Notes under the pieces: generated by a model | Told to the model about the DNA's origin: nothing | The model's database searches: none | The model's input: only the letters and a program-made list of their open reading frames with translations | NCBI GenBank assembly: GCA_037137755.1 | Contig: JBAXJR010000010.1 | Coordinates: forward strand, 1 to 60,919 | Length of the DNA stretch: 60,919 bases | Origin: Methanomicrobiales archaeon | GTDB taxonomy: Archaea > Halobacteriota > Methanomicrobia > Methanomicrobiales > Methanospirillaceae | Direction: 5' to 3' | In this document: positions 26,918 to 38,948 of the stretch, piece by piece | Position numbering within the stretch: the stretch's first letter is position 1 | Layout: the number at the start of each line of letters is the position of its first letter | Position numbers and translations under genes: made by a program

Positions 26918-26973
26918 ATTGGAAATGAAGGATGCCTTTCATATTGCAATACCGGAGATTATTGCAATAAAAT

Positions 26974-27153
26974 TTAATCCGGGTTATCGAAACGCTCGAA
27001 GTAACATTCGCCGGAGGTCAGTTTTTCCCCAGGTTTCAGGTCAATAACGAACCTGTCGGCATGATCCAGGCATACATATACCGCACAGCACCCGTATCCC
27101 TGGTAACCGATGGCGTCTTTTTCACAGTACTCGCATTTCTTTTTTTCGACCAT
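26974..27153 (-). CDS. Small Cys-rich (putative Zn-binding) protein, 59 aa, missing from the ORF track
   Basis: Manual translation: MVEKKKCEYCEKDAIGYQGYGCCAVYVCLDHADRFVIDLKPGEKLTSGECYFERFDNPD*. Confidence 0.7.
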   Translation of the reverse strand: MVEKKKCEYCEKDAIGYQGYGCCAVYVCLDHADRFVIDLKPGEKLTSGECYFERFDNPD

Positions 27154-27229
27154 TGTAGTTCACTTCGGTAGATATTCAGTACTACTCGAAAAAAAAGAGC
27201 TGGTATTAATCCGGGTTTATCCCTGCACA

Positions 27230-27982
27230 TCAATCGGTCTTCGAGAACGATGACCAATGGATATCCTCCTGGATGTTGAACCGGCCGTTGGCCATGAGAT
27301 TCTTACCGATAGAGTTCACGTAACCGAGCTCAGTAGTCGTACCAATCCCGGCCAGGCTCCTCGAACCGAATCTCATCGATCCCATTCCCGAACCTGAACC
27401 AATAGCAGCGAAGGTAAACGTATCCGGGATCTCTAAATCCGCCTGGACAACAGACCCAACAGACCGATAGGTAAGATCATCAGCCATGAACAGCGATCTC
27501 GTGATCACCGTCTCACAATACGGTATTGCGGTGAAGTTCGCTCCGTATGCATCGAGCGATTCCACACCACACGTCACACCGGAAGCAGCAGCACCGGCAG
27601 AGTGGAGCATCATGCTCTCCTCGAAAAGTCCTGGCCCGGAAGACTGTGCCTGGCTTATCGTATCGAAGTGGACAATATCTGAATTGTTCAATATCTGCGA
27701 GCTCTCATACTGCGAAGGACCGGTGAGGATGTACCCGTCCTGGTATCCTCCACTCAGTACTTCCTGCCCGATGGCGAGCGGGGGTGTCTTCGCAAGGTCG
27801 CCGTTTGACACAGTCCACGATATATCAGACGAGCCGACGAGCGACTGGTCAGCGTTTCCCATGAAAGAAACACCAACCGCTGCAGCCTGGGCAGGGGCTG
27901 AGGTTATCGCCAGTCCTGCTACAATTGCTGCGAAAATACAGCCGCCGATGACTAATTTCCTCCTTTTCGTCAGGCGATTCAT
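27230..27982 (-). CDS. Secreted/surface hypothetical protein
   Basis: Basic N-terminus plus hydrophobic signal (KRRKLVIGGCIFAAIVAGLAITSAPAQA), Ser/Gly-rich beta character. ATGA overlap with the upstream gene. Confidence 0.8.
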   Translation of the reverse strand: MNRLTKRRKLVIGGCIFAAIVAGLAITSAPAQAAAVGVSFMGNADQSLVGSSDISWTVSNGDLAKTPPLAIGQEVLSGGYQDGYILTGPSQYESSQILNNSDIVHFDTISQAQSSGPGLFEESMMLHSAGAAASGVTCGVESLDAYGANFTAIPYCETVITRSLFMADDLTYRSVGSVVQADLEIPDTFTFAAIGSGSGMGSMRFGSRSLAGIGTTTELGYVNSIGKNLMANGRFNIQEDIHWSSFSKTD

Positions 27983-28371
27983 TTCGCCTCCGTCTTTCCC
28001 GAGCCCTTAATGAGCCCGTATTCAATGTCATACCAGGCAGACGGAACCGAGATAGTGTATGTGTCAAGTCTCTCAGCTTCAGCCTCGGCTACCTGCCGGA
28101 GCAGGCTTTCCCGTTCAACCGGTGAATGGTCAAACGTGAGCCAACGCTTCGTGCTGTCGGCCATCCTGTACGACCGGCCCTGCACCTCCGGTGGAGCGAC
28201 GCTGACCGAGTCGTCGGTCGCATCGAAGTAGCTCAGTACCTGTCCGGTCTTTTGCTGTGCCGCCTCTGTTTCAGCGATCGCGTTCGTTGCTCTCCGGTGC
28301 TGGATATACGCAAACCCGGCAGCGGCGAATGCAAAAAGCAATTCAATTACATTCGTTAATTCTGGATCCAT
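27979..28371 (-). CDS. Hypothetical protein with N-terminal TM helix
   Basis: VIELLFAFAAAGFAYI anchor. Overlaps both neighbours. Confidence 0.75.
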   Translation of the reverse strand: MDPELTNVIELLFAFAAAGFAYIQHRRATNAIAETEAAQQKTGQVLSYFDATDDSVSVAPPEVQGRSYRMADSTKRWLTFDHSPVERESLLRQVAEAEAERLDTYTISVPSAWYDIEYGLIKGSGKTEAK

Positions 28372-28522
28372 AATTTGCCTCTTTTAATTTCTGTTCCTCA
28401 CGGTGGGCCTCGAATTCTGCACAAAAAACCTCGTATTTTCCGATCTTCTCATAGATCACGAACAGCGAGGGATACAGCGGAAGCACTACCGCAAGAACAA
28501 TGACGAGAAGTTCAACATCCAT
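28343..28522 (-). CDS. Small single-TM protein (59 aa)
   Basis: MDVELLVIVLAVVLPLYPSLFVIYEKIGK... with a GAGGTGG RBS before ATG 28522. Confidence 0.65.
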   Translation of the reverse strand: MDVELLVIVLAVVLPLYPSLFVIYEKIGKYEVFCAEFEAHREEQKLKEANYGSRINECN

Positions 28523-28534
28523 CCTTACCACCTC

Positions 28535-28606
28535 AAAAATGCAGGGGTTTTTTGGATTGGTCCAAAGATAGAGAAGGGTTGGTCCTCTACCACCCCTGCC
28601 ATTTTT
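28535..28606 (-). other. Predicted three-way-junction RNA structure in an intergenic region
   Basis: Outer stem AAAAATG(G)CAGGGG/CCCCTGCATTTTT encloses the hairpins TAGAGGA-ccaaccc-TTCTCTA and TTGGA-ccaa-TCCAA. Confidence 0.45.
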
Positions 28607-28616
28607 CACACCCTGT

Positions 28617-29123
28617 TTATGCAAGGGCGGGCTTCGTGTTCGCCCAGGTGTTCACGCGGGCGACAATCGCATTGTCCTCGTACGAGGAAACGGTGATAGT
28701 CTTCCTGGCAAACGTGACGGTATAGTCTTCGCCGTTCGCATCGTGACAATTCAGCGAGATGGAATACCCTTCGCCTTCAGTGTCCTGGATGGGGTCCCCT
28801 CCGATTGCGGTCGCAAGTGCGGCATTTCCGACGAGTGCGGTTGAAGCTGCGGTATAGCCGGCAACGGTTGATGCCTTTGCAGTTGCCGTACCCATGTTCT
28901 TCAGGGTTGTCGGGTTCTCATAGACCACACGGATGCCGAATGACTGTGTTGCACGGCTTGTCCCGGGGTGAGTCTCACCGGCAACAACGTGGTCCACACA
29001 CTGGAATGCGTTCGTATCGATAACTCCCTGGACAAGGGTGTTCAGTGTCGCTACATCAGCAATTTTGGTCGTAATGGTACGGACCGATCGCTTTACATTT
29101 GCCTTCTGGACAAAATCTGACAT
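28617..29123 (-). CDS. Hypothetical Thr/Ala/Val-rich protein, first gene of the element's left operon
   Basis: 168 aa from ATG 29123 (MSDFVQKANVK...) with a GGAGAG RBS. Confidence 0.8.
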   Translation of the reverse strand: MSDFVQKANVKRSVRTITTKIADVATLNTLVQGVIDTNAFQCVDHVVAGETHPGTSRATQSFGIRVVYENPTTLKNMGTATAKASTVAGYTAASTALVGNAALATAIGGDPIQDTEGEGYSISLNCHDANGEDYTVTFARKTITVSSYEDNAIVARVNTWANTKPALA

Positions 29124-29180
29124 TTCTTTTCTCTCCTGCCCAAAATCTTTGGGCGTATGGCTGTACACGGAGAACTAAGA

Positions 29181-29225
29181 AATATTTTGAGGGCGGGAGG
29201 TAAACCGACAATATTTGAGGGCTGG
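29181..29225. repeat. Imperfect direct repeat in the divergent region before orc1/cdc6
   Basis: AATATTTTGAGGGCGG (29181) and AATATTTGAGGGCTGG (29210). Confidence 0.5.
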
Positions 29226-29352
29226 TTAAAAGAAATACGGCTAATTGATTGTTATTGGAGTGACAAGTACGATGTATCCGGATCGTAACACCGTTCACTT
29301 TCAACACGCCTGGTTCAGCTCTATATCCTCACCGGTGCGATGTTCCTATTCT

Positions 29353-30486
29353 ATGAAGTACTACCATGATACAGGAGCGTCACTGTTCCGTAATCCTGAT
29401 GCCTTCGAAATTGCGTATATCCCCGAGGTGTTCAATTTCCGGGACTCACAGATGAAAGACCTTGCCGATGCACTGCGGCCAGGGCTTACCGGTAAATCCC
29501 CTTTCAACATGGTGCTCCGGGGCCTTCCGGGCACGGGAAAAAGCACCGCAGTCCTCCGGGTCTTTTCGGAACTCGAAGAGACGACATCACGGATCGTTCC
29601 AGTATACGTGAACTGCCAGTCAGAAAACTCTAAGTTCGCGGTATTTGCAAAAATCTACGGGAAACTGCATGGCCATCAGCCGCCACCCTCCGGAAAGCCA
29701 ATCCGGCAGGTCATATACGATATCGGAAAGATCCTCAACGAGAGGAAGTTGGTGCTCCTGGTCTGCTTTGACGATGCCAATTACCTGCTCCCGGGGAAGG
29801 TACTCAACAGTGTCCTGTACATCCTGCTCAGGCTGCACCAGGAGTACCCCGATGCACGGGCAGGAGTCATCCTCCCGATGAGCGATATGGATATGGATCT
29901 CCGTGCAGTCCTCGACCCAAACGTTATTTCCGTCCTGCTGCCCGATACGATTCACTTCCCGCCGTATAACGAAGTGGAAATCAGCACGATCCTGCGGGAC
30001 CGGATCAGGGTCGGTCTCAATCCCGGTGTCATCACCCCCGACATCTTTGACTGCATCATCAGCCATACCATGCGGACCGGGGACATGCGGGTCGGTCTCG
30101 ACCTGGTGAGACGCAGCGTAACGGCAGCCGAACGGGCCGGAATGGACGTGGTCACGAGGGATCATGTCGAGGCCTCATACGATCCTGCAAAAAATGCACC
30201 CCTTGACGCAAGCATCCAGGCGCTTTGCACGGACGAGCGGAAACTCTATGGGCATATTGCGGACATGTCCCTTGGTACCGGTGAAAGCCTCACGAGCGGG
30301 GCCGTGTTTGAGTCGGTGAAACGTTACATGCCGATTAGTTACACCGGGTTCTACGAGAAACTCAAGAAACTGGACGAGATGCGCCTCATTGAAATGACAT
30401 TTCTGAAAGGCAGGGGAACTACCAGGGAGATTGCGCTCCGGTACGATGCGGAAAAGGTGATGAAACTGACGAGGTACGGGGAGTGA
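29353..30486 (+). CDS. cdc6: Orc1/Cdc6-family replication initiator paralogue
   Basis: YIPEVFNFRDSQ, Walker A GLPGTGKS, YVNC, Walker B CFDDAN, FPPY, GDMRVGLD and a C-terminal wH with GRG.TREI. Confidence 0.92.
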   Translation: MKYYHDTGASLFRNPDAFEIAYIPEVFNFRDSQMKDLADALRPGLTGKSPFNMVLRGLPGTGKSTAVLRVFSELEETTSRIVPVYVNCQSENSKFAVFAKIYGKLHGHQPPPSGKPIRQVIYDIGKILNERKLVLLVCFDDANYLLPGKVLNSVLYILLRLHQEYPDARAGVILPMSDMDMDLRAVLDPNVISVLLPDTIHFPPYNEVEISTILRDRIRVGLNPGVITPDIFDCIISHTMRTGDMRVGLDLVRRSVTAAERAGMDVVTRDHVEASYDPAKNAPLDASIQALCTDERKLYGHIADMSLGTGESLTSGAVFESVKRYMPISYTGFYEKLKKLDEMRLIEMTFLKGRGTTREIALRYDAEKVMKLTRYGE

Positions 30487-31005
30487 ATTGAGGTTTATTC
30501 AATTTTTTATTTGTACATTATACAACCCGGAGCGTTGACGGAAAGATTAATTGGACTATCACTGAAGGCTTACCACAGCCAATTACCGTCCTGTCGTAAA
30601 TCAGTCTCAATGTAAGTGAAATTGTAATCCCGGAAAATGGGTTGGTCATACAGGGGGGAGGACCGGACAGTGCGAACATGCCTGGCAGGTTGATTGTCAA
30701 ATTTGGGAAATCGCAGTGAGTGATTAGTATCTCCCCACAGATTTGTGTACCCTGTTCATCTCAACCTGGCATAAAATTCCGTTTAATCAGGGTTTGTGTC
30801 CCAATTTGGTACGGAAAAGAAAGTCGCGTACCATATCTTGGTCATGATGGTACGCAAATCATCAGACCCGGTTGCCATGATATCGAATGGTTAACATGGG
30901 TATATGAGCCAGCGCCGGGTGGGAGGTGACCAGTGTTTTGCAATTGCAAACTTTCAACCGGGTTATCTGTTTTACTTGAAATACATCTTGTCAAAAAAAG
31001 AGAAA

Positions 31006-31461
31006 TCAATTGGTTTGCCGGGTGAGGTGAATGACAAGGGCTTTTGTATCGTTACCTTCCTCGAGATAATTCAGTTCCAGGGAGTTGGGAGTGATCAACT
31101 TTCCGAATGAAAAGCCTCCGATGCTATCGGCTTCATAGAACTCCCCGTTCGTTGTGATAATCCCCGAGAAGTTCTCGTAGTATGTTTTTCCATCGATTCT
31201 TGGATACTCCTTCTTCCCAATAAATACCTGCCCTTTTTGTGTAGTGATGTTGAAGGTTGCTGCAGGATAATGAGTGAACCCGTCATTCGTTGTATACCCA
31301 TCGCCGGTCCCTTGCCATACACCCGTCATAGTGGGGATGTTCACATTCGTTGATACGGTTGGCGATGCGGTCACCTGAGTGATAGTAGGGGCCTGGGTTG
31401 TACATCCACATGCAAGCACAGCAACGATGAATATGATAAGGATAGCTACTATGAATTTCAT
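31006..31461 (-). CDS. Secreted lipoprotein-like hypothetical protein (probable beta-barrel)
   Basis: Signal peptide ending ACGC, Thr/Pro linker, then MTGVWQG beta strands. Confidence 0.75.
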   Translation of the reverse strand: MKFIVAILIIFIVAVLACGCTTQAPTITQVTASPTVSTNVNIPTMTGVWQGTGDGYTTNDGFTHYPAATFNITTQKGQVFIGKKEYPRIDGKTYYENFSGIITTNGEFYEADSIGGFSFGKLITPNSLELNYLEEGNDTKALVIHLTRQTN

Positions 31462-31713
31462 GATTCAAGTATGGTCACGAAAATTTAATAAAATCTAGCT
31501 TGATGTTTCAACCTGGTATACTATTGGTTCTGTATTTCCGGGCATATGTTGAATCCATTTTCCGGATGTGATGGCAGTGTGATCTGTTCCAGGCTGACTG
31601 GAGTGCGCAGTGGGATAATCGTGTCCTATTTCATTGCTGTGCATACGTAGGATATTTTTTAATGGAATCGGGAGGAGTAAAACCGCCCGGATTCCGCTAA
31701 ATTTTGAACTCCA

Positions 31714-31845
31714 TCACTTCCCCACGAACACCGCCGCTTTCCTGTTTCTCCCGTCCAGCACCACCAGCACCGACCACATGGGGACCGTGTAATACACCGC
31801 CCCGATTGAGAGATTCAATGCTTTTCCCGATGCAGAAAGCAGGGC
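31714..31845 (-). pseudogene. 3' fragment of a homologue of the 34320..34775 gene
   Basis: 132 bp with 20 mismatches to 34320..34451. Encodes ALLSASGKALNLSIGAVYYTVPMWSVLVVLDGRNRKAAVFVGK*. No in-frame ATG before the upstream stop. Confidence 0.85.
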
Positions 31846-32237
31846 GGAACCGGCCAGGTGCCTGGAAATAATAGCCTGCCTTCGGAAATAATTTCATATT
31901 TCTATAGCCATGTCATGGCATAGCAAGGATTAAGTATCCCGAAGTCAACAAAAGGATCAGGTAAGCTCATGTCTGTTATGATGTGTACGAGTGACACAGA
32001 TACGATTCAGGTAACAGACACCTTCTTTTTCTTCTTTAGATAGGGGACCCGTGCGATAGCCGGATCCCCTGTAATGTCGTTCCAGAGAGTTTACCGGATG
32101 GTTTTTATCATGTGTAAAATGTTTCTCAACCCACGTCAGGAGGCAGTAAGGCGGAATATCAGCGTTCGCATAGGACACATTCTGCATGCCACCGAAGGTA
32201 TGACCGGAAGCAATCTTTCAGGCCAGAGGATGTCAAA

Positions 32238-33563
32238 ATGAGAGCAAGCACGATTATTCTGTTAGTATTAGCGGTTGGGCTCATCCTTGGCGGTGTTGCC
32301 ATTTCGGGGTGTACCCAGAAGGCCGCAGCATCGCCAACGGAATTAAAGATCGGGGTGGTTGCCTCGCTGACCGGCCCTTCAAGCGCGACCGGGAAAGACA
32401 TGTGGCAGTCGGCACAGATCGCTGCCGACGAAATAAATGCAAACGGAGGTGTCTACGTTACCGGACTCGGGCAGAAAATCCCGGTAAAAGTCATTGTCGG
32501 TGATGATGAATCCACCCGCGAAGGCGGGCAGAAAGCCGTTTCAAAACTCATTTCAGCTGATAATGTCGATGCCCTTGTCGGTGGTTTTTCAAGTGCCGTG
32601 ACAACGGCATCCCAGTCTGTTGTTGCAGAACGCAAGGTGCCGTACGTCATAACCGGTGCATCGAGCCCGACCATCACGAGGAGGACCGATATTGATACGT
32701 CCTACATGTATCACTTCTGCCCGACAACCGATGACTACGGAGGACAGACCACCCGGTTCATCAGCAATTTCATGAGGCCTGCAATCTACCAGAAATTTAG
32801 TCTTGATACTGCCCGGCCACTTCGGCTTGCAATTGTTTACCAGGACAGTCCTTATGGGAAAGGAGTTCTCACGGCGGTTGAAAACACGATAAAGAATGAG
32901 AACCTGCCCGTTAAAATTGTAAGCAACGAATCGTTCAAAATGGGTGAGACTGACTACCGGACATTGCTCACCAATGTCAGGGCGAGTCAGCCCGACGTGA
33001 TTTATTCTGCGGCCTTCCTCAATGAACAGGGCCCCATGATCACCCAGGCCCGGAGAGATGTAGGGCTGAATACCCTGTTCGTCGTGGTAGAGTGCAACGA
33101 CGATCCGGATTATTACAAGAGCCTCAGCAGGTATGGCGAAGGCTCGGTTATAGAAAGCCATTTCAGCCCCTACACGGTGCCGAAAGGTTCTACCTCCGAT
33201 GCGGCTGTTGCTTTCAAGAACAGCTACCAGAACAAATGGGGTGGACTCCCCAGTATGATGGGTGCGACCACGTATGAGGGAGTGAACATTGTCGCTAATG
33301 CAGTCGGGCAGGCAGGATCGCTTGATAAAGCGAAGATCAAGGATGCCCTTGCGGCCACAAATATGCCTGAATCAATAGAGGCCATGAAGGATGGAAAAAT
33401 CACCTTCTCAAAGGATGCCCGTGAGGCAAACTTCAACCTCTACATGGAACAGCTTGCATGGAACGAAACACTGAAGGAACTCCGGCCGACTATTGTTTAT
33501 CCAGCTGACCTGAGCCAGGGCAATTTTGTTCTCCCTGACTGGTACCAACCGGGAACAGCCTGA
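32238..33563 (+). CDS. Branched-chain amino acid (LivJ/K-type) ABC substrate-binding lipoprotein, orphan
   Basis: Signal peptide with SGC, KIGVVASLTG, EINANGG, GGFSS, DSPYG and TDYRTLL. No permease nearby. Confidence 0.9.
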   Translation: MRASTIILLVLAVGLILGGVAISGCTQKAAASPTELKIGVVASLTGPSSATGKDMWQSAQIAADEINANGGVYVTGLGQKIPVKVIVGDDESTREGGQKAVSKLISADNVDALVGGFSSAVTTASQSVVAERKVPYVITGASSPTITRRTDIDTSYMYHFCPTTDDYGGQTTRFISNFMRPAIYQKFSLDTARPLRLAIVYQDSPYGKGVLTAVENTIKNENLPVKIVSNESFKMGETDYRTLLTNVRASQPDVIYSAAFLNEQGPMITQARRDVGLNTLFVVVECNDDPDYYKSLSRYGEGSVIESHFSPYTVPKGSTSDAAVAFKNSYQNKWGGLPSMMGATTYEGVNIVANAVGQAGSLDKAKIKDALAATNMPESIEAMKDGKITFSKDAREANFNLYMEQLAWNETLKELRPTIVYPADLSQGNFVLPDWYQPGTA

Positions 33564-33630
33564 AAAATGGGTGAATGGGGTACCCGGGTCCCCCCAAACT
33601 ATACTTGTTTTTTTCTGCAGCACTTCCAAA

Positions 33631-34248
33631 TCATTCGTCTTCGTCTGATTCATTCCAGGTTTCATATCCTTCCCAAAACAAAAATATCGATATAATAAGG
33701 CCGGCAATTGGGTCTGCCTGCCAGAATCCGAAGAAGTAATTAGCTCCAAGGCCAATCAAAAGTGAAACCGACAAAAATGCACAGGTAATTGTTTCTTTAG
33801 AGTCCGCAATGAGAGCTTTGCTCCCTATCTGGTTACCAACTACATACTTCCTCCAGGCGAGAACCGGCATAATAATAAGTGAAAATACTGCAATAACCAT
33901 CCCGATTAAGGATGGCTGGGAGATCTCCTGGGTCACAAGTTTGCTAATGGATACAAACACAACGTAAATTCCCAGTACCAAAAATGTTATCGCAACTAAT
34001 TTTTTAGCCTTATTTTCCACAATCTCTTCTTCTTCCTCGGAAATGTGGCCATGATTACGAAGTCGCCAGATCAGGACAGACCCGGAAAGAGACTCAACAA
34101 CACTATCGAGACCGAAACTGATAAGCGAAATGCTTGAAGCCGCGTTGCCAAAAAATATCGATAAAATTGCCTCGATAATGTTATAACCGACTGTAAAATA
34201 TTCCAATAACAGGGCTGTCTGGAATAATGATTCGGATTTTTCTTTCAT
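33631..34248 (-). CDS. Cation-efflux (CDF-related, TM-domain-only) membrane protein
   Basis: YNIIEA, SISLISFGLDSVVE, ALIADS and WQADP. About 6 TM helices. AT-rich gene. Confidence 0.8.
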   Translation of the reverse strand: MKEKSESLFQTALLLEYFTVGYNIIEAILSIFFGNAASSISLISFGLDSVVESLSGSVLIWRLRNHGHISEEEEEIVENKAKKLVAITFLVLGIYVVFVSISKLVTQEISQPSLIGMVIAVFSLIIMPVLAWRKYVVGNQIGSKALIADSKETITCAFLSVSLLIGLGANYFFGFWQADPIAGLIISIFLFWEGYETWNESDEDE

Positions 34249-34319
34249 TGGATAGTAAAAGAATCAGTTTGAAGATTATATAACTGAATTGCCAGGTCAG
34301 GATTTTATTAATATTCATT

Positions 34320-34775
34320 TCATTTCCCCACAAACACCGCCGCCTTTCTATTCCTACCATCCAGCACCGCCAGCACCGATCGTAATGGAACCGTGTAATA
34401 CACAGCCCCGATTGAAATATTCAATGCCTTTCCCGATGCAGAAAGCCGGGCCTTACCGACGACCTTTCGTGGACTACCGAGCAACCTGATTTCCCGCGTA
34501 TCCCCATCAAGCACCGCATCAATATCCTCATTCAGCAGGAGAAATACCCGGCTGTCAAGGTCAGAGTAGATTGCAATCCCAGCCGGGCACATGATCAGCC
34601 TCCCTGCTTTTTCAAATGATGACCGGCTGGAGGGGTAGGTAACGAACTGAGTCGGCGGTTCTTCTGTAGCCTGCTCTTTTGCAACCGGAGGAATTTTAAC
34701 GGGTTCCTGCACACTTCTCCACCCGGACAGGACTTCCTTCAACCGATCAAAAAATTTCCGGAGGGTGGCAATCAT
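34320..34775 (-). CDS. Hypothetical protein of the element's replication operon
   Basis: ATG 34775 with a GAGGGTGA RBS. C-terminal tandem beta-beta-beta-alpha-like units. Confidence 0.7.
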   Translation of the reverse strand: MIATLRKFFDRLKEVLSGWRSVQEPVKIPPVAKEQATEEPPTQFVTYPSSRSSFEKAGRLIMCPAGIAIYSDLDSRVFLLLNEDIDAVLDGDTREIRLLGSPRKVVGKARLSASGKALNISIGAVYYTVPLRSVLAVLDGRNRKAAVFVGK

Positions 34776-34830
34776 GCGATCACCCTCACGAATTCCGGGC
34801 AGTAATCCAGACCCTTCAGCCACAATAACA

Positions 34831-37800
34831 TCATTGGCACATCCCCTCCTGCTCACTACCCCCTGATTGCCGGGAGATCTCCCGGTTGTAGCAGTAATCA
34901 CAGAGTTTCACCTTCGTGGCCTCGTCATACCAGGCAGCACTTCCAATGTCACAGACCGAACACCGGCCGAGGTCCCGGGTCAACCTTTTCATCGACCTCA
35001 CGGGGAGCACTCCCGGTAATGGTAACCCCGAAGCCTGTGCTTTCAACACGGCATCACCGTGACAGGTCCTGCACAATCTCCGGGCAGGGAGAGCGGGATT
35101 GCTGGCCCGTTCGGGGGTAAGCTTCTCGATAAACCACGAATCACCCCGCTTCCCACAACAGGTACAGGGTACCCTGTCGGGATAGTCTGCCTTCCGGTAG
35201 TCACCCGGATGTATCCCGGCAGGCGGAATCCGGTCATGTCCCTGTACATCGGGCGAAATCTTCCGCGTGGATATTCCAGGTTGTACATCAACGTTTTCAC
35301 AGATTGGGGGCAGGTTACAGGACTCCCTGTTTTGTCGTACGGAATTCTGTACTTCACAATGAGTAGGTACGTGTAGGTCACACGTGCCGTCGGGAGTCTC
35401 CGCGAGATCTGATTTTTCAGAATAGAGCTGATCATTAGTACAGCTATGGGTAGGAATGTCATCAATTCCTGAATCACGGGCATCCCGTGGGAATTGATCC
35501 ACGCGGAAACTTTCAGCTATTGTGCAGCTTGTTTCCGTAGTCTGCCCGTCTTTTCCGTACGGGTCATCCCGGAGCCAGACACTCCCGCCGCTGCACCAAA
35601 TCCTGAACAACACGTCATCAAAGGTATAGGCATTCGTCCTCCTTCGCATCGAAATCCCGGTATCATTCTCATCGCATACCACCGTCCTGTCGGTATAGGC
35701 AATCGCCGGGCACTTCTCGAGCAGGCCGGAATAGGCATACCCCCGGGTGATGTAGCCATGCATCGTCCGGTAGACCACCCCGTTTGAGAGGCCCGTCGCC
35801 TTCTGCAGCATCGAGGTCGTGAACTCAGTCCAGCTGTGCCGGGCGATGATGGTAAGGAGGTCTGATTCTTTCTTCGTCAGCTTCGTCGTCTGGCCACCCG
35901 CTGACCCGTTGAGCAGCTCGAACAGCCGGGCCGCAGCGTTAAAATCTTCAAGGGTTGCAGTAATGCAGCGTACATCTCCCACCTGCGTTACTTCGCGCTG
36001 CATGAACCGGAGGAGGGCATGGGCCTTGATCAGGTCGAGCAGCATCCCTGAATTCCGCCTGTTGCTCCTCGACTGGAACTCGATCTGTTCCGAAAACGGC
36101 ACCCGGACGTACAACCGCTGGCGTCCCAGCACCTCCCACATCGCCCGGCAGACCGCGAGTTCCGGCCGTTCAACCTCGTTGGCAACGGGAAAATCCGAGT
36201 CCTTCGCCAGGATACAGGCCAGAACGCGGTCGTCCTGGTCGGCCGTGTCATCGATCCAGCAGGTCAGCATCCGGTTGAACACCTGGTCGTCCCCGCTGCC
36301 TTCGACCTTCGCCACCCACCAGGTACACCGCTCCGGGATCGTGCAGACCTGGGGCTTTCTGTCCTTATTCACCGTCCGGTACTCGAACGGCTCTTTGAAC
36401 GAGGTGGTCACTCCCTTGAGGACCTCCTGCATTTCATCGGAAAGCGTGGTATCGTCGAGCACGATCACCATCCCCGGGACCAGGTTTTCGAGGTAGAACA
36501 GCGCCTTGTTGCTCATCCTGCCCGAGAGCCTGAACCTCCCGGGGACCTGCAGGAGCATTTTTGAAAATGCGTGGCTCTTCCCCTTCCCGCTCTCCCCCGT
36601 GACCGAGACATGAAGCCCGACCGTGTTGATCACCGACCGGCTCGCAAGCGACATGACCAGGCACGCTGCAACCGTCTCGTCCCCGACATGGTCGAGTGCA
36701 AACGTATTCAGCATCGCCTGGAGCGGATCGCCATACTGAAGTACTGCCATTGCTTCCTGCATCCCGGGAAGGTCATGAAGTCCCGGGACTGGTGAAGGGG
36801 GGAGAGGTGAGGGATGGTCAGGAGTGGCCTTTTTCCTCGCAACCTTCGGTTCAGCCATTTCCCGGAGTTCCGACCACCGCTGCTCCCCTCCACCGCAGGA
36901 CGCATGATGACACCCGGCATGGATGGCCCCGTTCCCGAACTGGATGGCAAATGCACCATCTTGGTGGTCGCATGAAAACGGGCACTGGTGAAAGGTGAAC
37001 AACGTCCCACCCTGGTAGGGCTTCCCGGTGGACACCTCAAAATTATGCTCATGTAACCAGGCCCCAAGGTCGGGCGGCCTACTGTATCCTCGTACACCGC
37101 TGGTCCCGCTACGGGAATTTGCAGTGGCTGCCGGCAGGCATTCCGCCAGTTTCATGAGCAATGTATCCCCGGCTTCATCTGCCTCAACCGGGTGAGAACG
37201 GACCAGGGCCCGGCGGTGCGGACGGTCGGATGTATTGTCACCCTTCCTGCACATCGTACCGTAGAGTTTCCAGATCCTTGACGGGTTGTGGACTGTCGTA
37301 TCGATGGTGCTCTCCGGACCGTCGAACATCGCCGCGAGCACCTCCAGGCACTTCTTCACCAGCTCCCGGGACGCCTCGTCATTCGGCAGGTCGATACGGT
37401 ACAACAGGTGGGCACCGTTCCCGCTGTCGGCAACAACCGGGGCCGGCCACCCGAGGTCACTGAGATAAACCGCGATCCGTTCCGCTTTCGCCATCGCGGC
37501 ATTATGCTCCGACTCTGTTGAAGATACCCCGGAAGGCCGTACGGGGTCGACATCAACCGGCAGCCAGCGACGACGGATGATATCGGCATCCGCCGTGGTC
37601 GCATCTTTTTTCGAAAGACGCATCTTGATCCTGTTTGCACGCCGTGAGAGGAGGGCCGGGTTCACCTCGTTCAGGGTCACATAAATCCCCTGGACCCCGG
37701 GCAGGGTATCCAGCGGACTAACCGCGTTTGCGAGCGCTGCCGGGTCATTGAAGTACCCCGAGGCCACCCCGTCGTCGGTGATAGCCCGGACTTCTACGAG

Positions 37801-37881
37801 CTGCCCGGGTTTGAAAAGCACCGAGAGGGCATCCGTCATCGCCTTCATTGCGGGAATACCTGGCTGACAGGGCTCATGCAT
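34831..37881 (-). CDS. Multidomain replication protein: AEP/RepB'-like primase, Zn finger, P-loop NTPase, wHTH and Cys-rich tail
   Basis: PVDVD, DSGNGAHL, IDTTVHNPSRIWKLYGT; CPFSCDH...CHHASC; GESGKGKS and IVLDD; C-terminal CTCC/CRTC/CSVC/CDYC. ATG 37881 overlaps the hjc-like stop. Confidence 0.85.
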   Translation of the reverse strand: MHEPCQPGIPAMKAMTDALSVLFKPGQLVEVRAITDDGVASGYFNDPAALANAVSPLDTLPGVQGIYVTLNEVNPALLSRRANRIKMRLSKKDATTADADIIRRRWLPVDVDPVRPSGVSSTESEHNAAMAKAERIAVYLSDLGWPAPVVADSGNGAHLLYRIDLPNDEASRELVKKCLEVLAAMFDGPESTIDTTVHNPSRIWKLYGTMCRKGDNTSDRPHRRALVRSHPVEADEAGDTLLMKLAECLPAATANSRSGTSGVRGYSRPPDLGAWLHEHNFEVSTGKPYQGGTLFTFHQCPFSCDHQDGAFAIQFGNGAIHAGCHHASCGGGEQRWSELREMAEPKVARKKATPDHPSPLPPSPVPGLHDLPGMQEAMAVLQYGDPLQAMLNTFALDHVGDETVAACLVMSLASRSVINTVGLHVSVTGESGKGKSHAFSKMLLQVPGRFRLSGRMSNKALFYLENLVPGMVIVLDDTTLSDEMQEVLKGVTTSFKEPFEYRTVNKDRKPQVCTIPERCTWWVAKVEGSGDDQVFNRMLTCWIDDTADQDDRVLACILAKDSDFPVANEVERPELAVCRAMWEVLGRQRLYVRVPFSEQIEFQSRSNRRNSGMLLDLIKAHALLRFMQREVTQVGDVRCITATLEDFNAAARLFELLNGSAGGQTTKLTKKESDLLTIIARHSWTEFTTSMLQKATGLSNGVVYRTMHGYITRGYAYSGLLEKCPAIAYTDRTVVCDENDTGISMRRRTNAYTFDDVLFRIWCSGGSVWLRDDPYGKDGQTTETSCTIAESFRVDQFPRDARDSGIDDIPTHSCTNDQLYSEKSDLAETPDGTCDLHVPTHCEVQNSVRQNRESCNLPPICENVDVQPGISTRKISPDVQGHDRIPPAGIHPGDYRKADYPDRVPCTCCGKRGDSWFIEKLTPERASNPALPARRLCRTCHGDAVLKAQASGLPLPGVLPVRSMKRLTRDLGRCSVCDIGSAAWYDEATKVKLCDYCYNREISRQSGGSEQEGMCQ

Positions 37882-38221
37882 GGCAACCGGCTCCCATAAT
37901 ACCCCCTGGTAATACATCGTACATGTGCCAGCCTTCGTGGTCGACATAGATCCAGAGCTGAACCTTGGTTCCAGGTGGAGCCGGAGTCCTCTGGAGGAGC
38001 CGGATTACACCCCCGAAATGAATCGTTACAGTCCGTGCCGACTCGATCTTCGACCGCCACCGGCGGGTCTTCACGAGGAGCACATGGTCAGGGGACCAGG
38101 CTACAAGGTCAACCGGTGTCTGGGAACCTGCGGAACGGACGACAAAATAGCCCTGCCTGAGCAGCAGGTTCCTCGCGATAAAATCTACTTCATGGGGCCT
38201 CGTATGCCCGGGCTCTGTCAT
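37874..38221 (-). CDS. Hjc-like (PD-(D/E)XK) Holliday junction resolvase homologue
   Basis: LLRQGYFVVRSAGSQTPVDLVAW...LLVKTR. Confidence 0.75.
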   Translation of the reverse strand: MTEPGHTRPHEVDFIARNLLLRQGYFVVRSAGSQTPVDLVAWSPDHVLLVKTRRWRSKIESARTVTIHFGGVIRLLQRTPAPPGTKVQLWIYVDHEGWHMYDVLPGGIMGAGCHA

Positions 38222-38538
38222 CGGTCCACCACCCCGGAGGACTCAGGTATCCGTGCCAGTTCTGCGACCGGCCGTAACCCCGTTGATACGTCAACGAATA
38301 CCCCTCGTGGGAGCAGCCAGCATGAAGGACCACAATGGAATTCTATTGCTTTCCCGGCCCGGTGAGGGGTGATGAAGGAGCCGGCATCAATAATGCCGCC
38401 CGGTAACCGGAGCGGGATGGTACTGCCCCAGAAGAGCAGGCTCCGGACCTCCTTCGGGGAGAGCGTGAAGGTGTTACCGCCAATTACTACGATAAGGCAC
38501 CCTTCGGTTGCGGTATGGACTGTGGCCGTGCAGGTCAT
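38218..38538 (-). CDS. Hypothetical protein, apparent paralogue of the 34320 gene
   Basis: ATGA overlap with the hjc-like gene. GGTGA RBS before ATG 38538 (alternative start 38559). AGKAIEF...LLP...V..G aligns with SGKALNI...TVP...VLDG. Confidence 0.65.
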   Translation of the reverse strand: MTCTATVHTATEGCLIVVIGGNTFTLSPKEVRSLLFWGSTIPLRLPGGIIDAGSFITPHRAGKAIEFHCGPSCWLLPRGVFVDVSTGLRPVAELARIPESSGVVDR

Positions 38539-38660
38539 GGAGATCACCCGGACCGGCATAAATAGGATGATAACCTGCCAGTTACCAGACTAGTAGTGCT
38601 CCCCTGTTTCATTGCCGTGGTTGGTTTATGTGCAGCGGGGGCACTCATTTTTTGTATCAA

Positions 38661-38774
38661 TTACCTGTCCTCCTGAGTTGCCGGGAATCGGATTTCCGTT
38701 ATAATTTTACTGTCAGACCTGCCCTGGTTTGCAAGTGCATTACGCACAGACCTCTGGATTGTTGTTTGTTGCAT
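38661..38774 (-). CDS. Possible 37-aa leader ORF of the element's right operon
   Basis: MQQTTIQRSVRNALANQGRSDSKIITEIRFPATQEDR* with leader CAGGAGAAAGAAATG. Confidence 0.35.
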   Translation of the reverse strand: MQQTTIQRSVRNALANQGRSDSKIITEIRFPATQEDR

Positions 38775-38948
38775 TTCTTTCTCCTGGCGGAACCGGGATG
38801 ACCCGTCTGCCGCCACAACATGGATGGTTTATTACCAATCTAAAGGTTGAGCAGAGCGATTGAAAGTAAACGAACAATCAGCAATAGTAATATCATGGAT
38901 TGAATATGAGCTGTTAGTTAAGTACATTAAGGGAATACAGGGGTTATT

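Follow-up and report, generated by a model that had tools for sequence, protein, structure and literature searches.

The closest described relatives of the system considered here are members of arCOG07809 (the Mpal_2033 elements), a family described by computation in which a primase, a helicase, a helix-turn-helix (HTH) domain and a Zn finger share one chain (Makarova et al., 2014; PMC4158269). In the accessible parts of that paper, to which all our comparisons with it are confined, the family has a Hjc-family neighbor (arCOG09441) and a homologue in C674 of ASV1, several members come with integrases and integration sites, members are listed in Methanoregula and Methanoplanus, and a satellite virus is proposed; the text calls the motor 'Superfamily I helicase', whereas a table gives it as 'AAA DnaA-like'. 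A second point of reference is the layout described for PrimQH, in which an archaeo-eukaryotic primase (AEP) domain precedes, in this order, a Zn-binding domain, an ATPase of the MCM or another type, and a winged helix (Kazlauskas et al., 2018; PMC5862659, likewise as far as its accessible text goes). Here we analyze a 60,919-nt stretch of DNA from a Methanomicrobiales archaeon of the Methanospirillaceae (assembly GCA_037137755.1, contig JBAXJR010000010.1, positions 1 to 60,919; hereafter the window, its genome being G000), in which a gene on the minus strand encodes a probable replication protein, here called Rep, within an insertion of ~12 kb.

It is very probable that the window protein represents the Rep of the arCOG07809 elements, with which it has in common the domain set in a single chain, the adjacent Hjc-like nuclease and the homology of its ATPase to ASV1 C674. 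An integrase and integration site are found with its relatives and are missing from the window copy, and the 2014 statement on these concerns several members only. A homologue from M. formicica (AGB03477.1) is 56% identical at 97% coverage, and the 2014 supplement lists an arCOG07809 member there under GI 432331841, an identifier not tied to AGB03477.1. In a literature search that fell short of most subscription journals, Makarova et al. (2014) was the only paper naming the family and no later description was found. The initial annotation of this DNA had missed both that description, with its layout, and the role of the gene as a core component of integrated elements. Relative to the accessible 2014 account, what is new here is the MCM-like motor with its DD Walker B, the link to a Methanothermobacter plasmid, the match of the primase module to a Bacteroides phage protein, a separate internal zinc ribbon, the prevalence across the order and the existence of intact copies lacking an integrase.

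We consider it likely that Rep is the self-loading replicative helicase-primase of integrative plasmid-like elements of 12–40 kb in Methanomicrobiales, and that the window copy is stranded yet conserved. Under this reading, the winged helix, perhaps aided by the Cys-rich tail, would bind the origin of the element, the MCM-like AAA+ domains would assemble as a ring and unwind DNA, the tethered AEP domain and zinc ribbon would make primers for host polymerases, and the adjoining Hjc-like nuclease would resolve branched products. Complete elements would integrate at tRNA 3' ends by means of a tyrosine integrase. The window copy would be 'grounded', having lost its integrase and attachment (att) sites and having been inherited at its site since before the split from the sister genome G010, with its genes under purifying selection.

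Domain architecture of Rep

The 1016-aa open reading frame (ORF) runs on the minus strand from 37881 to a stop at 34831. Its start is ambiguous, with an alternative in-frame ATG at 37947 (1038 aa) lying within the upstream nuclease gene and most homologues beginning at residues ~11–15. A search for relatives yielded 1772 out of 8000 scored candidates, and motif conservation was scored in the best 120 full-length homologues, among which every listed source name giving an organism is of Methanomicrobiales. For the whole protein, Pfam, NCBIfam and PDB sequence searches returned no real match, so that no curated family covers it; PHROGs gave a single weak match, phrog_19, to residues 26–132. A match of the Cys tail to Defensin_4 was rejected as chance. 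An assembly artefact was likewise rejected; in contigs from read run X8, which carries no mark as a possible source, parts of the gene recur letter for letter.

All the motifs from which a single-chain primase-helicase had initially been proposed are present in the ORF: D110-x-D112, S153-x-x-G156-x-H158, D194 and NPSRIWKLYGT in the primase, the Zn motif C300/H306/C324/H326/C329, Walker A GESGKGKS (429–436), Walker B IVLDD (D476 D477), the wHTH-like (winged HTH-like) segment FTTSMLQKATGLS, and eight cysteines in the tail. D110, D112, H158, D194, R202, the five zinc-motif residues, Walker A, D476/D477, R537 and N607-R608-R609-N610 are conserved in 120/120 homologues, and the tail cysteines in 117–118. 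Structure predictions covered residues 1–345 and 368–774, with predicted local distance difference test (pLDDT) scores of 92.6 and 95.3, respectively. As modelled, one chain combines an AEP fold with an MCM-like AAA+ fold, in keeping with the single-polypeptide reading.

The N-terminus does model as an AEP domain, with motifs I (DxD), II (His) and III (Asp) in place. Its best fold match is S-2L PrimPol (Z 16.2, root-mean-square deviation (rmsd) 2.8, 176 aligned residues), followed by RepB' (Z 14.1) and archaeal PriS (Z 13.7); S-2L PrimPol and RepB' are thus the nearest described folds (PMC8065100 and PMC5862659, in their accessible parts). The label 'RepB'-like' attached to the primase initially is therefore apt only as a statement of structural neighborhood, RepB' also being rank 1 in Foldseek. 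Members of the RepB' family carry Gln in motif II and a helical PriCT-1 domain behind the primase, according to the accessible text (PMC5862659). We rejected membership, as H158 is present in 120/120 homologues and a β-rich zinc ribbon stands where PriCT-1 would be. This ribbon, which bears out the Zn motif and is of the primase type, matches Twinkle (Z 6.0), the DnaG zinc-binding domain (5.8) and T4 primase (4.8), middling values for a small domain. With the PrimPol-PV1 supergroup (PrimQH, All3500; PMC5862659, accessible parts) Rep has the layout and AEP fold neighbors in common, the comparison being one of layout and fold only; the four-CxxC tail of Rep is an extra relative to the PrimQH/All3500 layout described there.

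The same AEP and zinc ribbon recur in gene 89 of Bacteroides phage C3_41T2LP (OR296439; 35% identical, hhalign E 3e-53), a protein that ends in a DnaB-like helicase. They are also found in the Methanomethylovorans plasmid pMETHO01 (L132 7959–10478), where they are joined to an RQC winged helix and HEAT repeats and the protein has no helicase.

With the ATPase, MCM proteins take ranks 1–11 of the fold search (Z 17.6–21.6; top match Z 21.6, rmsd 3.0, 242 aligned residues), and in Foldseek 38/38 rows shown are MCM or MCM-containing complexes. Below them come RavA (Z 17.2), BchI (15.8), Cch (10.5) and Cdc6/Orc1 (8.0–8.4). The SaPI5 primase-helicase, taken as a test of superfamily 3 (SF3), reached Z 8.2 versus 21.6 for MCM, with no other SF3 members among the matches listed. 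The P-loop region does have an NTPase fold, and it is MCM-like, as had been proposed at the outset. Searched against the PDB, the sequence profile of the ATPase gave P-loop and HTH fragments only, and hence the MCM link needs fold comparison.

MCM helicases (SF6) possess an N-terminal tier of helical, OB and zinc elements. This tier is absent from both Rep models, the N-terminal 345 residues being AEP and primase zinc ribbon. The host MCM is a separate gene with the Walker B motif DEMDKM and 20% identity to the Rep ATPase over 217 aa (E 0.002); we accordingly rejected Rep as a paralogue of it. Judging from the models, the motor is MCM-like yet no MCM orthologue, given the missing N-terminal tier, the DD Walker B and the 20% identity to the host MCM. 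The superfamily 1 (SF1) label of 2014 was also rejected: SF1 helicases have two tandem RecA-like domains, and in the model a wHTH follows a single AAA+ domain that bears a helical lid. Going by the motif positions of MCM, R537 is presumably the arginine finger and R609 sensor 2. A prediction of a three-copy ATPase complex scored 0.33 against a mark of 0.42.

An MCM-type AAA+ fold is also the motor of cellular MCM, of Cch in SCCmec and of the Rep proteins of pT26-2 (MCM-like, t26-22p), and the mobile ones among these are integrative and lie beside a recombinase (PMC6972569 and PMC2926602, in their accessible parts); Cch matches the Rep ATPase at Z 10.5 only.

The last ~100 residues of the second model match the winged helices of SarS (Z 8.9) and SarA (Z 8.2) over model residues 300–396, in support of the wHTH noted at first. 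This domain is a more usual candidate for origin binding than the Cys tail, to which that role had been tentatively given. The tail has no ESM Atlas match and no family, its sole weak match being DUF7685.

Modular relatives of the ATPase

A scan of 45 relatives showed this ATPase joined to four further kinds of primase, namely Prim-Pol, NrS-1-like, AEP-TOTE and DnaG/Toprim, and such repeated fusions are as expected for a replicative helicase. The Cys tail accompanies the ATPase in long relatives with other primases (e.g., P0141, P0149, P0151, P0154, P0158, P0193). By its sequence, Rep reads as a chimera of exchangeable modules. Two relatives with other primases sit in G000 itself. These distant relatives lie at C30 22728–25064, with an NrS-1-like primase, and at C45 4291–6852, with a Prim-Pol and CHC2 finger; that the latter has its own integrase and other neighbors suggests sister element families.

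Homology to the ATPase and wHTH extends to the 804-aa largest ORF of the 4.4-kb plasmid of Methanothermobacter marburgensis (NC_014409, pMTBMA4; L131 101–2515), which we take to be pME2001. It aligns with Rep at hhalign 99.8% (E 5e-29, 352 columns), with the DD Walker B retained. Unlike Rep, this ORF lacks the AEP domain, zinc ribbon and Cys tail, and its plasmid is autonomous rather than integrated. The whole plasmid is the replicon of the pMVS vectors (PMC8609365, accessible parts). C674 of the fusellovirus ASV1 is likewise homologous to the ATPase profile (hhalign 97.7%, E 1.4e-12, 294 columns).

The element family in Methanomicrobiales

The ATPase is present in 117/201 Methanomicrobiales genomes with a patchy distribution of 0 to 9 matches per genome, intact frames of ~1000 aa forming the majority of matches across the order; distant relatives (26–35%) occur in 16/247 sampled genomes outside it. 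From 319 related loci we surveyed the best 80. Upstream sequence of at least 8 kb was available for 37 of these: a tyrosine integrase is present in 15 and a tRNA on the same strand in 13, the integrase comes immediately after a tRNA in 10, and a tRNA on the opposite strand occurs in two; neither integrase nor tRNA was found in any of the 32 loci with at least 8 kb downstream. The Hjc-like gene lies within 1.3 kb upstream of Rep in 40/64 loci and the conserved gene o193 within 1.2 kb downstream in 25/54, while a gene for a 168-aa protein and one for Cdc6 follow Rep in 16/42 and 5/42 (the ORF cluster o113, which mixes unrelated small ORFs, was excluded from the counts). Cargo, labelled by reading of the sequences, includes restriction-modification, CRISPR-Cas-like, toxin-antitoxin-like and histidine-kinase-like genes.

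In three of four long views with tRNA and integrase, the last 13–16 nt of the tRNA 3' end are repeated 21, 27 and 40 kb downstream, and shuffled sequences equalled these repeats in 0, 0 and 9 of 300 cases; the fourth (G031) has no att repeat of at least 11 nt. The scan covered 33 stretches, most of them without a tRNA or ending too early, and a few 11-nt matches were taken as chance. In the complete genome G200 (C1 ~1,969,700–1,999,700; L183–L184), two tandem element copies of 14,956 bp, 99.99% identical, lie at a tRNA-Gly with three att sites. The pair may represent tandem integration or an assembled episome.

Two further observations concern the surroundings of these loci. CRISPR arrays or cas-like operons directly adjoin Rep modules at L001 1–1300 (G000 C54), L010 1–730, L023, L032, L036, L038 and L056. 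At L017 and L031, modules lacking an integrase adjoin, upstream of Hjc, the same pilin-like gene cluster in two genomes, apparently a fixed site.

The insertion in the window

The insertion separates moeA from a molybdate transporter gene, and in G002, G003 and G006 the two genes are direct neighbors. Its gene order is that of att-bounded elements such as L018 (Table 1). In the insertion we found no integrase, tRNA or tRNA fragment, terminal repeat or att site, and no target duplication at the junctions. Intact element-type integrases are present on other contigs of G000 and could in principle act in trans, yet no att site was found at the window copy.

Table 1. Features of the Rep-encoding insertion, in coordinates of the 60,919-nt window
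Feature	Position	Strand	Basis or remark
Whole ~12-kb insertion between moeA and molybdate transporter gene	26921..38890		Empty site in G002, G003, G006
113-aa element gene	38218..38559	-	Homologue upstream of paralogue on C54; no family match
Hjc-like PD-(D/E)xK nuclease gene	37874..38221	-	Overlaps Rep start; Pfam Hjc E 0.006, below cut-off
AEP primase/polymerase domain, residues ~11–250	37132..37851	-	Motifs DxD, SxNGxH, D194, R202; fold match
Primase-type zinc ribbon, residues ~268–345	36847..37080	-	C-x5-H-x17-C-x-H-x2-C; fold match
MCM-like AAA+ ATPase, residues ~373–665	35887..36765	-	Walker A GESGKGKS, Walker B DD, invariant R537 and R609
Winged helix with long β-hairpin, residues ~666–772	35566..35886	-	Fold match, secondary structure
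Variable linker, residues ~773–885	35227..35565	-	Unalignable among homologues; dN/dS 0.66 vs G010
C-terminal module, four CxxC pairs	34873..35226	-	Two predicted zinc fingers; cysteines 117–118/120; dN/dS 0.27
o193, conserved ~150-aa gene after Rep	34320..34772 (longest ORF to 34901)	-	No family match
Cargo	32238..34248		Pfam
Cargo: ABC substrate-binding protein	32238..33563	+	Pfam
Cargo: cation-efflux gene	33631..34248	-	Pfam
Duplicate of o193 3' end, bracketing cargo	31714..31863	-	83% over 139 nt
Orc1/Cdc6 paralogue inside element	29245..30486	+	NCBIfam NF001624 over cut-off
Conserved four-gene module	27230..29123	-	168-aa soluble protein (28617–29123), small membrane protein, 130-aa and 250-aa proteins

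The sister genome G010 carries the same insertion with both junctions, its cargo being partly different in that other genes replace the efflux gene, and its 88.5% DNA identity to the window is continuous across the right junction. Synonymous divergence (dS) of Rep between the two is 0.38; as this falls inside the range of ten host genes (0.23–0.56, median 0.34), it points to vertical descent. The ratio of non-synonymous to synonymous divergence (dN/dS) is 0.12 for the AEP domain, 0.17 for the zinc ribbon, 0.08 for the ATPase, 0.14 for the wHTH and 0.27 for the tail, with 0.48–0.66 for the linkers, 0.03 for the Hjc-like gene and 0.04 for the 168-aa gene. Purifying selection on grounded prophages was reportedly found by Bobay in 2014. 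Loss of recombinase or att sites, retention and cargo turnover, as in the window element, are features of grounded prophages, as far as the accessible account goes (PMC6379469); unlike there, it is the replication module itself that is kept here, in up to nine copies.

Contigs of four read runs gave no excision or circle joint, and the Rep contig was covered about as deeply as its flanks; since contigs drop rare forms, this absence is no evidence either way. A promoter scan of the window returned nothing informative.

The 168-aa protein heading the four-gene module has 101 homologues, mostly of 167–168 aa, with paralogues on C6, C20, C34, C43 and C54 of G000 and ~11 near-complete gene copies in the complete genome G219. 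It has no family, PHROG or ESM Atlas match and no significant PDB match. In the same module, the 130-aa protein bears an N-terminal hydrophobic helix and the 250-aa protein a signal-like N-terminus, and we regard the whole as a candidate structural or transfer module. G000 has six Orc1/Cdc6 homologues (window, C5, C8, C25, C26 and C34), at least two of which adjoin the 168-aa module. A 59-aa Cys-rich ORF at 26974–27153 (-), flanked by a short TTAATCCGGGTT repeat, lies in a stretch without a match in G010.

In both G000 and G219 the 3' end of the o193 family reappears downstream of Rep, the partial matches in G000 falling on the C-terminal part of the profile in 6/6 cases. Such 3'-anchored, 5'-truncated copies, also beside signalling genes, are seen in the window (31714–31863 and 34320–34458) and on C34, C50, C42, C43 and C27 of G000, and at loci L173 and L175–L177 of G219; their end point is near-identical within each genome. 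Decay of stacked elements that spares DNA near useful cargo explains these duplicates simply, end-anchored capture of cargo being the bolder reading.

Weighing the interpretation

What is observed in favor of the helicase-primase interpretation are the folds, the conserved motifs, the order of the genes, the repeats at att sites, the empty sites and the dN/dS values; several points count against it. All activities are inferred from fold, conservation and context, and so the assembly of a ring, the binding of an origin and the cause of retention are likewise inferences. The Walker B motif is without the usual catalytic Glu, DD being present in 120/120 close and 118/119 distant relatives, and hydrolysis may accordingly be weak or rely on another residue. 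The upstream integrase is absent in 22 of the 37 loci noted above, a pattern not foreseen by a simple model of integrative plasmids. The dN/dS values come from one genome pair (window vs G010) by simple counting with no significance test.

One alternative, which strikes us as unlikely, is domestication: Rep modules that have become grounded, in many cases together with an Orc1/Cdc6 paralogue, would serve as accessory origins of the chromosome, as repriming or repair enzymes, or in interference against incoming relatives. It would fit the finding that every gene of the element is under purifying selection at an immobile site, the prevalence of intact ~1000-aa frames across the order and the Cdc6 within the element; replicons are said to have been captured as archaeal origins, as Robinson and Bell reportedly described in 2007. 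The 84/201 genomes without a match mark the module as dispensable, however, and the window has no excess of matches to a pattern resembling the origin recognition box (ORB) (13 found vs 11.5 expected). Moreover, the selection may stem solely from broken multidomain proteins being costly, or from paralogues undergoing gene conversion.

We think it similarly improbable that the element is a satellite virus or provirus, as hypothesized in the accessible part of Makarova et al. (2014); a helper, or else the 168-aa protein of the element together with the small membrane proteins, would then package it. The ATPase homologue in fusellovirus ASV1 is compatible with this, as are the near-fixed length and dN/dS of the 168-aa protein, the size of the element and a gene order that may be likened to that of phage-inducible islands. 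Yet IMG/VR contigs hold no Rep relative, the 168-aa protein has no PHROG, Atlas or significant PDB match, and no packaging gene was recognized.

The complete genome G219 raises a different prospect. It encodes nine Reps of 959–1068 aa, all of which retain primase motif II and the zinc, Walker A, arginine and tail motifs (the Walker B pattern missed copy 1 and matched a different DD in copy 5), and neither integrase nor tRNA occurs in any of the nine 20-kb views. Its single long match to an element-type integrase is fragmented and lies >240 kb from any Rep copy, and no serine resolvase was found, DDE transposases being outside the search. For one copy, the closest DNA relatives are its own paralogues (88%, 74–78%) and not the four congeners (five genomes of the genus). 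Together with the 3'-anchored o193 duplicates in two genera, these facts could indicate that Rep and the Hjc-like nuclease themselves spread the module to new chromosomal sites independently of any integrase, the integrase-less copies being active rather than stranded, a reading that we rate as improbable. The junctions in the window show neither terminal repeats nor a duplicated target, and the window copy is fixed at one site across a dS of ~0.35. Furthermore, the congeners of G219 are distant, so that horizontal gain is possible, and integrase loss after insertion gives the same picture. A bolder conjecture, a touch more probable but still rather doubtful, is that the modules are recombinase-free archaeal replicative elements, the primase-MCM replicating the locus in place, the Hjc-like nuclease resolving copies to new sites or tandem arrays, and cargo being captured at the o193 3' end. 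If true, it would give a methanogen chromosome up to nine Rep-driven accessory replicons.

As poor as those of integrase-independent spread are the prospects of the ATPase as an initiator or loader with a DnaA/Cdc6-like role, or as a catalytically weak DNA clamp recruiting the host MCM, rather than a processive helicase: the DD Walker B, the lack of an MCM N-terminal OB tier in either model, the 'AAA DnaA-like' label of 2014 (PMC4158269, accessible part) and the plasmid homologue without a primase would suit such a role, but the Cdc6/Orc1 matches are weak beside those to MCM, the Walker A Lys and two Arg are invariant, and fusion to primases is repeated.

Implications

The family is known but thinly described, and the present work revises the class of its helicase, ties it to a methanogen replicon that works and shows its persistence without an integrase. 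With its motor re-assigned to the MCM clade, lacking the N-terminal tier and bearing a DD Walker B, the protein becomes a minimal MCM-like helicase that can be put to the test and is joined to a primase of the phage type. Since the main ORF of the Methanothermobacter plasmid is homologous to the same motor, it provides a candidate mechanism for a 'cryptic' vector replicon. The att-bounded elements of 15 kb are suggested raw material for Methanomicrobiales vectors, and the tandem complete element of G200 is a good experimental model. More than half of the genomes of the order carry the module, often in several intact copies without an integrase, and these loci open the conservation of replication genes in stranded elements to direct testing.

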